Assembly: GCA_038207335.1 (NCBI GenBank)
Contig: JBBQZX010000008.1
Span: forward strand, 114,940-178,939
Length of the DNA stretch: 64,000 nucleotides
Reading direction: 5' to 3'
Origin: Chthoniobacterales bacterium
GTDB taxonomy: Bacteria > Verrucomicrobiota > Verrucomicrobiia > Chthoniobacterales > Chthoniobacteraceae
Made by a program: the position numbers. This document shows positions 30,001-33,000 of the stretch, piece by piece (the stretch's first letter is position 1; the number at the start of each line of letters is the position of its first letter).

Positions 30001-33000
30001 CATCTATTCCGTTTCCTGCACGACTCGTGCGCCGCGGCCGGGCGAGTTGGATGGGGAGGATTATTTTTTTCTCACGACGGCGCAATTCGAGGAGCGGATC
30101 GCGGCGGGCGAGTTCATCGAATACGCGAATGTGCACGGGCAATTTTACGGCACACTGCGCGAGACGGTGATGCGCAACTTGAGCGAAGGCGTGGACGTGC
30201 TCGTCGATATCGATGTGCAGGGCGCGCGCAGCATCCGCGGCGATTGCGAGGCGATCAGCGGCGCGCTTGCGGACATTTTCATCATGCCTCCGGACCTCGA
30301 AGAGCTGCATCGGCGACTGCTGAAGCGAGGGACGGAAACGGAGGAGCAAATCGCGGTGCGGCTGAACGCGGCGTCCGCCGAGATGGCGGCGTGGCACGAC
30401 TACAAATACACAATCATCACGGGCTCGGTGGAGGAGGACCTGGCGAAATTCCGCGCGATCATGCGGGCGGAGCGATACCTCAGCCGGCGGCTGACGCTGC
30501 TATGAAACCGGTCGTCATCGTCGGCGTCACGGGCTCGATCGCGGCGTATAAATCCGCGGATCTCGTGAGCAAATTGGTGAAGCGCGACTTCGACGTGCAT
30601 GTCGTGATGACGCACGGCGCGCAGCAGTTCGTCACACCGCTCACATTTCAAACGCTGTCGCGAAATCCTGTGCTCATCAGCATCTTCGAGCATTCGGGGG
30701 ATTGGAAGCCCGGGCACATCGCGCTCGCGGATCGCGCGGCGCTGCTGCTCGTCGCGCCGGCGACGGCGAACATCATTGCGGAACTCGCGCACGGATTTGC
30801 GGGCAATCCGCTAACGGAAATCGCGCTCGCGACGGAAGCGCCGGTGCTCATCGCGCCGGCGATGAATGGGAAGATGTGGCTGCACGCGGCGACGCGTGAA
30901 AATGTCGCAACGCTGCGGGCGCGCGGAGTGGATTTCATCGGTCCGGAAGAGGGGATGCTGGCGTGCGGATACGAGGGAATCGGACGGCTGTGGAGCGTCG
31001 ATGAAATCGTCGCGCGAGCGGAAAATATTGCGCGGAAGAATTGAGCAGCGGCTGGGAAGGCCCATGAATACAGGGTTTGCTGGCGATGGATGGCATCTCC
31101 GCTCAGTTTTTCACGCGCCATGCAGCGGGAATTCGTGTGGATCAATTTGAGTCGCATGGGTTTTTTTGAAAAAACTTTCGCGTCTGCGTTTTAATGCGCG
31201 GCGTGCCGCATTCAAAAGTGACGATGATCCGCGAATGCTTATGAATAAATGCTTCGCGTGCGATGACTGCGTGAATCGCATCGCGTTTTTGGCCGCGCTG
31301 CCAGCGTGATTTCCGCGCTGGAGCGCAAAATAAATGCACGATCAATCACAAAATTGTTGACCGAATTCGCATGTGAAATTAATCAACGCATCACCGAAGC
31401 GTGATACCACTGCTCTCAACAATTTCCGTGAACCGCTACTGCGGTTTGAAAGGGGGGATTATCTATGGCGATTAAAAAAGCTCCTGCCAAAAAAGCAGCG
31501 CCGGCAAAGAAAGCTGCACCCGCGAAAAAGGCCCCAGCCAAGAAATTGGCTGCGAAGAAACCAGCGACGAAAGCCGCTGCAAAAGCGAAGCCTGCAGCGA
31601 AGAAACCAGCCGCGAAGGCGCCTGCAAAGTCTGCTGCGAAAGCTAAGCCAGCTGCGAAAGCTGCTGCAAAGCCGGCGGCAAAGGCCAAGGCCAAGAAGTA
31701 ACGTCCCCACCGAACCCAAGGTTCGTAGTTTAAATGGGAGGAGAAATTCGTTTCTCCTCCCATTTCTTTTCCCCACATTCCGCGCCTCTCATTTCCGCTT
31801 CTACACGCCCATGAATCTCCATCTTCAAGCTGCCATCGATGCCGCGCGCGCCGCGGGGGAATTGCTCCGCGAAAATTTCGGGATGCCGCTCGATGTGAAT
31901 GCCTTCGAGGCACACGACATCAAGCTCGAGCTGGATGTGCGGTCTCAGGAATTGATCACGAAGATGCTGCTCGAGCGGTTTCCCGATCACGCGATTTATG
32001 GGGAAGAGGGTCTCGCAGGAAATCAGGAGAGCGAGTGGCATTGGATCGTCGATCCGATCGATGGGACTGTGAATTATTTCTACAGCATCCCGCATTTCTG
32101 CATCTCGATCGCACTGCGGCATCGGGAGGACATCGTGGTGGGCGTGATTTACGACCCGATGCGCGATGAGCTGTGGCAGGTGGCGCGCGGCGAGCCGGCG
32201 CTTCTGAATGGGAAGCCCATCGCTGTGAGTGCGCGGCCGCGACTGGCAGACGCGGTGTTGTCGGTGGGATTTTCGAAGACAAAGACGACGATCGCCGCGG
32301 GGATGCCGCTGCTGGAAAAGTATGTGCAGCGCGCGCGGAAATGCCGGCTGATGGGGAGCGCGGCGCTCGACCTGGCCTACGTCGCGTGCGGGCGGCTCGA
32401 TGCCTACATCGAGCAGTCGGTGAGCTTGTGGGACATCGCGGCCGGCAAGCTGCTCGTGGAGGCGGCGGGCGGGAAGATCGAGGTGACGCCGCGCGAGGAT
32501 AATCCCGACAAGATTTCCGTGCGGGCGTGGAATGGGCGAATCGATCTGACGGTGTAGACGGGATCTGAGGAGTCCCGACTACGCCTTCTCTTCGTCGAGC
32601 TTCACTTTTACTGCCGCATAGAGCTCCTCGTAAAGTGCCGCATCGGTTCGCAGCACTTCTTTTCCGGCGTCGCGGCCTTGTGCGAGCTGCCCGCCTTTAT
32701 AACTGAGCCACGAGCCTCGCTTTTCCACGATGCCCTTTTCGATCGCGAGATCTAGAAGAGCGCCGGTCGAGCTGATCCCCTCGTTGTACATGATGTCGAA
32801 CTCCGCCTCGCGAAACGGCGGCGCCACTTTGTTCTTCACGATTTTGAGCTTCGTGCGATTGCCCGTCACGCTCCCGTCCGCCTGCTTGATCGCACCGATG
32901 CGCCGGATGTCGCACCGCACACTCGAGTAAAATTTCAGCGCCTTGCCGCCGGGCGTCGTCTCAGGATTGCCAAACATCACGCCGATCTTCTCGCGGATTT

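Follow-up and report, generated by a model that had tools for sequence, protein, structure and literature searches.

The window analysed here, a 64,000-nucleotide stretch of a Chthoniobacterales genome, carries the gene order yicC-gmk-coaC, K/A/P gene, suhB, recA, with yicC to suhB on the forward strand. The yicC/yloC endoribonuclease gene (29012-29887) was recognised by PF03755, PF08340 and TIGR00255 (260 bits), the guanylate kinase gene gmk (29900-30505) by TIGR03263 above its cut-off, and the coaC-type flavoprotein gene (30502-31044) by PF02441; a suhB-type inositol monophosphatase gene lies at 31811-32557. Downstream of gmk-coaC, at 31465-31701, the first-pass annotation had placed an uncalled gene for a 78-amino-acid protein of lysine, alanine and proline (K/A/P), and an ORF running from ATG to TAA was found there. 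The K/A/P dominance that had been described was also evident, albeit not at the reported 92%: the protein contains 36 Ala, 27 Lys and 10 Pro, i.e., 73 of 78 residues (94%). The repeat occupies the entire ORF, leaving no folded domain, and the composition suggests a disordered polycation. In a genome-wide scan of 68,497 stop-to-stop segments of at least 40 amino acids, this was the sole ORF composed of K/A/P throughout.

Members of the family, collected from 74 loci, consist of 39% Lys, 36% Ala and 12% Pro (median K/A/P content 88%), with almost no Arg and two acidic residues in 4,286. Repeats are gained and lost in frame, in keeping with the variable repeat number reported earlier, and the lengths (19-125 amino acids, median 58) extend well beyond the 43-110 amino acids then given. 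TRF returned only two weak rows for the gene, which places the repeats in the protein rather than in tandemly repeated DNA, and third codon positions are variable (GC3 0.49).

Profile, PDB and exact-sequence searches all came back without a family, a structure or an identical entry: the PDB contained no match to the 78-amino-acid protein at E<=10, and none of ten family proteins (43-125 amino acids) was present in a collection of 15 billion proteins. Rfam gave three sub-threshold chance matches over 30900-32000. Literature searches, on the family as H1-like or lysine-rich micro-proteins and on Shine-Dalgarno (SD) sequences in Verrucomicrobia, returned no description of the gene, most subscription papers lying outside their scope. 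In this genome, the suhB frame is moreover open back to 31373, and the resulting 394-codon frame (31373-32557) shadows the K/A/P gene. Together with one spurious hit (L025) among the 29 best DNA-matched loci, the other 28 of which hold the ORF, these results could be read as an ORF that only extends SuhB at its N-terminus, or as low-complexity DNA. That reading is extremely improbable and is already largely refuted: reading is blocked in the other two forward frames at 47 and 68 of the 74 loci, a terminator separates the K/A/P gene from suhB, and conservation extends jointly to the promoter, SD, start and stop. Furthermore, loci L067 and L074 encode the same peptide with DNA differences confined to third positions. 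The count of synonymous differences pooled over 295 pairs (5,937 versus 1,428) is biased because the pairs were picked by protein identity, and it is not main evidence.

Conservation by synteny across the order, as proposed in the first-pass annotation, was borne out. The DNA of the gene was matched at E<=0.01 in 64 of 80 additional genomes from the order, and the gene was held by 72 of the 80, mostly 3' of coaC, when coaC-anchored and motif-guided fetches were counted with the DNA matches; regions fetched by coaC position alone held a K/A/P ORF in 38 of 51 cases. Two reduced genomes, each a single contig of 0.9 Mb, yielded no copy. coaC is present at 64 of the 74 loci and is the ancestral upstream neighbour of the gene. 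The downstream gene is variable (suhB at 41 of 74 loci), and the unit is inverted or relocated at 17 of 74. A link to the replication origin was considered and rejected, as the gene lies ~6 kb from dnaA-dnaN here, 0.3-4 Mb away in three relatives and on a separate contig in two. In other orders the gene follows coaC in eight of 40 genomes, searching ten further genomes by a coding-start pattern revealed two with a stand-alone version, and most of the f18, f19, f20 and f24 genomes tested yielded none. A search of the phylum with a hairpin-plus-SD pattern gave mostly chance matches outside the order, with the ORF in none of 30 loci.

The gene appears to be a stand-alone expression unit. The family pattern predicts a sigma70-type promoter with a -35 element (TTGACC) at 31357-31362 and a -10 element (family consensus TANTCA) at 31380-31385; TTGAC-N16-18-TA occurs in 63 of 74 loci, against a mean of 1.4 in shuffled sequences. 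A generic promoter scan found no site at the locus, being blind to this promoter because its -10 element lacks the final T. Using the DnaA-box consensus of PMC2533591, a DnaA-type box (TTATTCACA) was found to overlap the -10 element in eight of 16 families, not including this genome, and 41 strict TTATNCACA boxes were counted over the promoters of 23 of the 74 loci, in eight of 16 families. A looser pattern found 51 boxes versus 1.1 in shuffles, and the 9-mer of the promoter boxes also occurs near dnaA in four of five genomes. This genome has no such box, and neither do the other members of its family (0 of 8 f1 loci).

The predicted transcript would begin with a weak 5'-proximal hairpin of variable sequence (P1, 31396-31417), a segment that is more stably folded than its shuffled versions at 50 of 61 loci (mean z -1.3). 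A second leader hairpin (P2, 31431-31446; core CCGC-N4-GCGG at 31433-31444) ends 3-4 nucleotides upstream of the SD and shows covariation, with 93% of cells paired and nine compensatory cells in three of four pairs (0 of 500 shuffles). The ribosome site and terminator hairpin previously attributed to the gene were both recovered: an extended SD at 31448-31458 and an intrinsic terminator at 31732-31770, with an 11-bp stem (31736-31761), a purine-rich GGGAG 5' arm and a U-rich tail. Terminators are present at 71 of 74 loci. Taken together, the protein-level selection, promoter, leader hairpin, extended SD and terminator indicate that the K/A/P ORF is a real gene.

The transcript might matter more than its peptide, the translation of Lys-rich codons sensing charged tRNA-Lys or storing ribosomes, and perhaps controlling read-through into suhB. 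The very strong SD, the conserved hairpin, the presence of suhB at many loci and the SD-like GGGAG terminator arm (62 of 71 loci versus 0 of 12 control terminators) are compatible with a leader peptide or ribosome parking of this kind. However, the variable downstream gene and the inverted or moved units argue against it, Lys codons are a mixture of AAA and AAG with A-runs mainly of 6-7, and the Ala/Pro/Val composition is under selection, which points to the peptide. Two closures of the SD were also rejected: pairing with the terminator 3' arm, resembling that of type I toxins, showed no covariation (permutation p=0.078), and sequestration by the upstream linker was no better than in shuffles (0.39 versus 0.40 unpaired). 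An RNA-centred role is considered highly unlikely.

The most distinctive feature of the locus, absent from the first-pass annotation, is an extended SD kept without exception by bacteria that otherwise do not use SDs. Here the SD pairs with the 16S 3' tail at nine consecutive positions and at two more past a bulge (-15.6 kcal/mol), and an extended SD is present at all 74 loci (-15.1 to -21.0 kcal/mol). Its variants (GGGGG at 58 loci, GGGGTGA at 8, GGAGG at 7 and GAGGTGA at 1) keep complementarity. Across the genome, SD use is below chance: pairing at <=-4 was found for 26% of 3,005 starts and for 34% of mock starts. Ribosomal protein, HU and rpoA leaders lack a strong SD, and none of the 14 gmk orthologues tested had an SD. 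Three genes whose SD is strong in this genome, taken as controls, kept <=-14 in just 2 of 30, 1 of 30 and 1 of 3 cases, and confinement of the SD to one or few genes was judged on these three. The canonical anti-SD was read in the 16S tail of five of five relatives; the tail was not assembled in G000. Verrucomicrobiales are reported to lack SDs, and the sequestration or usability of the anti-SD in SD-poor Verrucomicrobia has been posed as a question (PMC10798248); searches turned up no ribosome structure from Verrucomicrobia. The conservation of an SD of at least 9 bp on a single mRNA speaks strongly, on comparative grounds, for continued selection of SD pairing in such Verrucomicrobia, and the K/A/P leader offers a natural reporter for the usability of their anti-SD.

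This arrangement resembles that of rpsU (bS21) in Flavobacterium johnsoniae and other Bacteroidia, where one gene has a 9-13-bp SD in an SD-avoiding genome with a canonical anti-SD (PMC9976891, PMC7797042). By analogy, the K/A/P peptide could bind the 16S tail or the platform of the 30S subunit, helping to keep the anti-SD out of use, while peptide-free ribosomes would read the extended SD and remake the peptide. The below-chance SD use of the genome is in line with this, as are SD energies in the range of rpsU (-14 to -21, computed with another program; PMC9976891), variants that stay complementary, and the poor conservation of a strong SD in the control genes. In this group rpsU, rpsR and rpsF, where the signal usually resides, are separate genes without an extended SD in five of five genomes (best of 15 leaders, -8.1 kcal/mol). 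In addition, the smallest K/A/P members (15-25 amino acids) are comparable in size to tiny basic ribosomal proteins. Yet the K/A/P gene encodes no known ribosomal protein (neither bS21 nor bS18), and its SD, unlike that of the Bacteroidia system, is abutted by a conserved hairpin. The family has no conserved residue pattern and a six-fold length range, unlike a pocket-forming protein. The gene was not found in the two reduced, SD-poor-looking genomes with a canonical 16S tail (tail read in G009), nor in most of the f18, f19, f20 and f24 genomes tested, although Verrucomicrobiales lack SDs (PMC10798248), and extended SDs are retained before similar genes of phyla that reportedly use SDs normally, e.g., Nitrospirota (PMC10783764). 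Bacteroidia bS21 has a less basic C-terminus and Tyr54 (PMC7797042), whereas that of bS21 here, read by eye, is basic and without Tyr in five of five genomes; the DnaA-type boxes favour DNA. A feedback peptide of this type is considered rather unlikely.

The K/A/P family shares several features with chlamydial Hc2/HctB (PF07382) and with the Hc2-like proteins of Bordetella (BpH1), Burkholderia and Ralstonia: according to PMC2848022, these have Lys-rich repeats of 4-6 residues with Ala/Val/Pro/Thr, evenly spread charge, no acidic residues and length polymorphism, and are apparently dispensable, BpH1 among them. Hc2-like proteins are longer (149-237 amino acids, versus 19-125), and, unlike Hc2, the K/A/P family has almost no Arg and its own sigma70-type promoter; for the invariant SD and leader hairpin, no counterpart in Hc2-like genes is described in the literature consulted. 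PF07382 did not match the 78-amino-acid protein; four long members scored 38.8, 31.2, 24.4 and 11.5 bits against a cut-off of 40, and two short members had no match. The nearest atlas cluster was 17% HC2, with a low recognition score that makes the match weak. The Burkholderia histone H1-like model NF038053 gave 11.4 bits (E 0.29; cut-off 80). Hc1/HctA (PF07432), regulated by the IhtA sRNA, is likewise small, basic and H1-like, with apparent translational control at the start region (PMC4355289); its N-terminal dimerisation domain is missing from the K/A/P family, no sRNA partner came to light, though no search was aimed at one, and PF07432 matched neither the protein nor any of five genomes, the control matching in Bacteroides only. 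Disordered K/A/P polycations with PAKK-type repeats also form the tails of linker histone H1, mycobacterial HupB/MDP1 and Pseudomonas AlgP, where they are joined to a folded domain that the K/A/P family lacks. H1 tails (PMC11331069) and the MDP1 tail compact DNA, the latter needing at least 38-44 residues for compaction in cells (PMC10810275).

With roughly even confidence, we interpret the K/A/P protein as an abundant but accessory and dispensable nucleic-acid polycation, rather than the sole condenser, whose main target is most likely the chromosome. The stand-alone unit would produce a short, stable, monocistronic mRNA, on which SD-led initiation may give ribosomes an entry reserved for this gene, either highly efficient or under separate control, while other mRNAs start without SD pairing. 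The small, unfolded, acid-free product would act like an isolated histone H1 tail or the repeat region of chlamydial Hc2, binding DNA and neutralising and bridging nucleic-acid backbones without sequence specificity. In some families, repression by DnaA might couple its supply to replication. Among the roles considered, DNA binding ranks as the most probable, in view of the fitting composition and of the DnaA-type boxes, which point to DNA as the target. Against this stand the 16 of 74 members below 38 amino acids, many of the family thus being shorter than the tail MDP1 needs (PMC10810275), the unconserved closeness to dnaA, and the lack of a box in family f1. Similar tails occur here on the ribosome-side proteins L17, L29, RsfS and IF2, and therefore composition cannot decide between DNA and RNA. 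A K/A/P tail had also been reported on DksA; the extension is present in this genome (and in G159), at the N-terminus.

The same polycation might instead coat RNA, ribosomes or polyphosphate granules as an encoded substitute for polyamines or protamine. Hc2 binds and prefers RNA and represses translation (PMC2848022), and the KPAA tail of AlgP localises to polyphosphate granules and spaces them (PMC9239181), although AlgP has another domain beyond its tail. In Chthoniobacter flavus, the condensed nucleoid encloses electron-dense granules (PMC2647929), and members of 11-25 amino acids in many phyla are polyamine-like in size. As a general polyanion chaperone would leave the DnaA-type boxes and the SD unexplained, it is judged fairly improbable. 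A combined proposal, that a tiny disordered polylysine/alanine peptide, overlooked by gene callers in many phyla, gates the anti-SD on ribosomes of SD-poor Verrucomicrobia, sets its own level via the single extended SD left in these genomes, and, as a non-specific polycation controlled by DnaA in some families, is perhaps shared between ribosomes and chromosome so as to couple nucleoid packing to ribosome state, is quite doubtful; were the ribosome gating true, feedback of the rpsU kind would have arisen a second time, independently, from a micro-protein.

The first-pass annotation had proposed an H1-like candidate nucleoid condenser for the phylum. A conserved gene for an H1-tail-like polycation withstood analysis, and the phylum-wide condensing role became unlikely because the gene is patchy outside the order, whereas condensed nucleoids have been described for four genera belonging to three subdivisions (PMC2647929), because it is missing from the two reduced genomes, and because members are often below the MDP1 compaction length. 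Moreover, knock-down of HctA/HctB in chlamydia did not prevent nucleoid condensation (PMC13317200). Isolating the factors that condense PVC nucleoids has been called an important step (PMC3177640), and the K/A/P protein would be a concrete, probably accessory, candidate in the order of C. flavus. One small gene thereby offers a test of both DNA packing and translation start in Chthoniobacterales.

Micro-genes of 11-35 amino acids, similar to the K/A/P gene and made of K/A, occur in other Verrucomicrobiae and many phyla. With a simple coding pattern, 55 of 80 metagenome matches were pure K/A ORFs (11-120 amino acids), which, set against the ten family proteins absent from the protein collection, points to a blind spot of gene annotation. 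An SD at <=-14 preceded 24 of the 55 (mock 0), several having A-rich leaders without SD; an SD that is common yet optional agrees better with pressure for high output than with a single fixed feedback circuit. Abundance alone fails to explain the invariant SD in the order, because the presumably abundant HU, rpoA and ribosomal protein genes manage without one. GGGGG is preferred over GGAGG within the order and the reverse holds in metagenomes (6 versus 24 of 55). Among viral matches, 26 of 79 were pure short K/A ORFs, five of them with an SD at <=-14.

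The small gene at 31465-31701 (forward strand) starts with ATG, stops with TAA and encodes 78 residues, 73 of them Lys, Ala or Pro (K/A/P); yicC, gmk and coaC lie upstream, and suhB and recA downstream. It was the only wholly K/A/P-type segment among the 68,497 stop-to-stop segments of at least 40 aa in the 5.17-Mb genome (G000), the ten other matches in the scan being tails or linkers of larger proteins. Its repeats are at the protein level and not at the DNA level (TRF returned two weak rows), its GC3 is 0.49, and its use of GCT, GCA, CCT and CCA far exceeds that of the genome. 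A 394-codon frame reaching into suhB overlaps it and could be one reason why gene callers skip it; among the 74 loci that hold the gene, stop codons close one of the other forward frames in 47 and the second in 68, so the suhB-joined frame is a shadow. An exact-sequence look-up in a large protein collection found none of ten family proteins. The usual gene order is gmk-rpoZ-coaBC; at 29900-31044 of the window, rpoZ is missing from between gmk and coaC, which overlap directly, and of coaBC there is only the CoaC half.

A DNA search gave matches in 64 of the 80 other Chthoniobacterales genomes, and 28 of the 29 best-matching loci contained the ORF, found by composition alone. Because the DNA query included the leader, anchoring on coaC (available in 79 of the 80 genomes) was added as a second route, and 38 of the 51 regions fetched by coaC position held the gene. 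With motif- or match-guided regions also taken in, the total is 72 of the 80 genomes, or 74 loci including that of G000 and one duplicate; 71 were found by composition and three (L093, L099 and L106) through an SD-like motif. The gene was not found in the drafts G077, G067, G032, G030, G051 and G018, in two of which coaC lies at a contig end, or in the single-contig, 0.9-Mb genomes G009 and G024, in which coaC runs almost directly into suhB. coaC is present in 64 of the 74 loci (57 on the same strand and seven inverted, all in family f7) and suhB in 41. The proteins are 19-125 aa long, with 39% Lys, 36% Ala, 12% Pro and two acidic residues in 4,286; f9 members have more Arg and Thr. Three records named Spartobacteria or Chthoniobacteraceae (L221, L262, L266) share the leader, ORF and gmk-coaC-suhB context. 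G017 has two copies of the gene, for 64 and 111 aa, on separate contigs (L113, L114), and both come with the promoter and DnaA-type boxes. In f7 (L007, L064, L067-L070, L074) the unit points the opposite way from coaC, and no gmk lies between yicC and coaC in loci showing both.

Some 100 nt upstream, 63 of the 74 loci have a predicted promoter (TTGAC-N16-18-TA), versus 1.4 in shuffles. Its predicted -10 consensus, TANTCA, may be the housekeeping consensus of the order or particular to this gene; at 31357-31385 of the window, and in the 63 family promoters, this -10 lacks the final T and the TTGAC -35 is near-canonical. The promoter is followed by a variable 5' hairpin, weak at a mean z of -1.3 (61 loci), and by a 4-bp hairpin with 93% of cells paired and compensatory changes in three of four pairs. 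None of 500 shuffles equalled the latter and slid controls gave 27-52%, although kinship of the sequences inflates such tests. That these elements make the locus an RNA-level leader is very improbable. Next comes an extended Shine-Dalgarno (SD) sequence whose spacing to the ATG hardly varies (15-17 nt in 70 of 74). A terminator lies 3' of the stop codon in 71 loci, and 62 of these terminators have a GGGAG-like run at the head of the 5' arm, as against none in a small control set of 12. This arm is purine-only and SD-like (GGGAG...) in the window (31736-31761) and in the family terminators, and in family f2 it copies the local SD variant.

The first-pass annotation had described an uncalled K/A/P ORF after coaC with its own ribosome site and terminator hairpin, conserved across the order beside gmk or coaC with variable repeat number, and these results bear out that description. 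The small gene is certainly a real gene. At the level of sequence, the family was shown to be a conserved, self-contained, translated-looking unit, and its predicted product is an acid-free, disordered polycation of free length. An artefact has a negligible chance.

SD strength was scored in kcal/mol against the 16S 3' tail, which is canonical and identical in five of five relatives (the G000 copy is not assembled). Only 26% of the 3,005 long-gene starts in G000, taken as first ATGs and not curated, reach -4 kcal/mol, compared with 34% among mock windows; at the expected SD position G is under-represented. No strong SD was found in the S10-spc ribosomal-protein leaders (by eye), in those of rpoA, rplQ and both HU/IHF genes, or in the rpsU, rpsR and rpsF leaders of five genomes; across the order, -8 is reached by 0 of 14 gmk, 2 of 57 coaC and 1 of 34 suhB leaders. 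This low use agrees with the lack of SDs in Verrucomicrobiales stated in PMC10798248 and with the value of about 10% for Spartobacteria in a table of PMC10783764. The SD of the small gene scores -15.6, equalled or exceeded by one of the 3,005 genes; the chance rate for -14 is 96 in 26,053 non-internal ATGs. All 74 loci score between -15.1 and -21.0, and the variants retain pairing (GGGGG in 58, GGGGTGA in eight, GGAGG in seven and GAGGTGA in one). Three other strong SDs of G000 are not conserved: that of map reaches -14 in 2 of 30 cases and -8 in 9 of 30, and those of a C2 and a C1 gene reach -14 in 1 of 30 and 1 of 3. The family carries the one conserved extended SD that we could find in this SD-poor lineage.

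Abundant proteins of the lineage do without an SD, and the invariant SD therefore needs a separate explanation. It may merely be the strongest start on offer for a very short, A-rich ORF. Alternatively, it could be a sensor, as for rpsU, with the peptide acting at the ribosome; we consider this reading unlikely, and a feedback peptide that gates the anti-SD is doubtful. Published work on Bacteroidia rpsU (PMC9976891, PMC7797042) describes the same extended-SD pattern, but here it is on a different gene: the small gene shares two defining features of that control (SD use at or below chance and a conserved extended SD) and lacks two (a bS21 or bS18 product and the Tyr54 bS21). hctA/IhtA provides a precedent for translational control of an H1-like gene (PMC4355289). 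A text search of PMC13000457 and PMC13000453 gave nothing relevant on Verrucomicrobia or leaders. Bacterial H1-like polycations are already known; the literature, incompletely covered, yielded no minimal stand-alone micro-gene family with the sole conserved extended SD of an SD-poor lineage. Through this gene, two questions that the literature leaves open (PMC3177640, PMC10798248) can be put to the test.

By analogy with the H1 tail (PMC11331069), the MDP1 tail (PMC10810275) and Hc2 (PMC2848022), the polycation would bind nucleic-acid backbones electrostatically. It is not a member of those families: the window protein did not match Hc2 and long members, at 11.5-38.8 bits, stayed under its cut-off of 40, Hc1 was likewise rejected, NF038053 gave 11 of 80 bits, and the folded domains of H1, HupB and AlgP are absent. 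It probably works like the tails of Hc2-, Hc1-, H1-, HupB- and AlgP-type proteins. DNA has about an even chance of being the target; the DnaA-type boxes favour it, as does the fact that C. flavus has a condensed nucleoid (PMC2647929). Strict TTATNCACA boxes, the DnaA-box consensus (PMC2533591), occur across the -10/start region in 23 of the 74 loci and 8 of 16 families, and in the 74-locus scan none was found in the family of G000; the 9-mer also occurs near dnaA in four of five relatives. Since the first box falls on the -10 and the second on the 5' hairpin, other causes may account for part of this signal. Upstream of dnaA in the window (22540-22820), the strand opposite to that gene carries three DnaA-type boxes, one perfect and two with one mismatch; two of the three are spaced by 11 nt. 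A role with RNA or polyphosphate, as for AlgP (PMC9239181), is unlikely. The proposal of a nucleoid-condensing factor stands insofar as an H1-tail-like polycation may target DNA, but the product cannot be the sole condenser, because its occurrence across the class is patchy, 16 of the 74 members are shorter than 38 aa, and in Chlamydia visible nucleoid condensation reportedly did not require the histones (PMC13317200).

In other orders of the class, a 20-50-aa version directly follows coaC in 8 of 40 genomes searched by coaC position, each with an SD of -17.8 to -21.6. SD-plus-start patterns found further versions, including L204 (a record named Methylacidiphilaceae) with gmk-coaC; the coaC link therefore predates the order. 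Ten further genomes were searched with a coding-start pattern, and two had stand-alone versions (53 aa, SD -9.8; 16 aa, SD -17.5); the remaining eight gave none. Judged from these searches, the distribution in the class is patchy. In an all-species SD-plus-start scan, 91 of 96 ORFs among the 80 matching loci listed were short and K/A/P-rich, the sources including Nitrospirota, Methylomirabilota/Rokubacteria, Patescibacteria, Planctomycetota, delta- and gammaproteobacteria and one archaeon. Searched with an unbiased coding-only pattern, metagenomes yielded pure 11-120-aa K/A ORFs in 55 of 80 matches, with SDs of -14 or stronger in 24 of 55 (mock 0) and -10 or stronger in 31, several having no SD. 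Cross-phylum homology cannot be shown for such sequences. In Nitrospirota loci (L207, L209, L225, L227, L229, L249, L257, L273, L276, L281), K/A micro-genes stand in tandem pairs with a spacing of about 200-250 nt; both members have an extended SD, and the sequence of the second terminator hardly varies. Matches to coaC with an internal stop were seen in G405:C3 (L623 region, TGA) and G352:C1 (TAG), and a glycosyltransferase-like gene of G026 is split in two.

A 192-aa protein without a Pfam match (L341:1414-1989, minus strand; G000:C14:17913-18488) is a competing nucleoid-protein candidate. Its predicted winged-helix N-domain (pLDDT 76) and K/A/P C-terminal tail give it a linker-histone-like architecture; the domain's Z scores are tied, at about 10 for PadR and for cullin domains and 9.4 for the H1x globular domain. 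Every one of the 14 other order genomes sampled has the domain, the 0.9-Mb ones among them, as do 9 of 106 others (f20, f24). Its homologues are mostly short and a few have the long tail; contig C24 carries a second copy. On contig C2 (L342:1281-1709, plus strand) a TTGAC promoter precedes the gene of a 143-aa basic protein that belongs to no Pfam family and may be an H-NS-like nucleoid protein. This protein combines a helical-looking N-terminus with a K/A/P linker and two A-x-x-x-K-A-R-W-A motifs. A 58-aa protein on C12 (L343:1452-1625, plus strand; homologue in L123) has an Arg/Lys-rich N-terminus and a K/A/P tail, with neither a Pfam family nor an SD; it has the look of an unannotated small ribosomal protein. 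K/A/P extensions are also grafted onto many nucleic-acid proteins of the class (G000 C23, C19, C11, C18 and C14; L653-L675), which, from sequence resemblance, we take to be RpoD, L17, DksA, Rho and IF2 in G000, and presumably RsfS, L29, a BlaI-type repressor, RpoD and DksA in f20 and f24.
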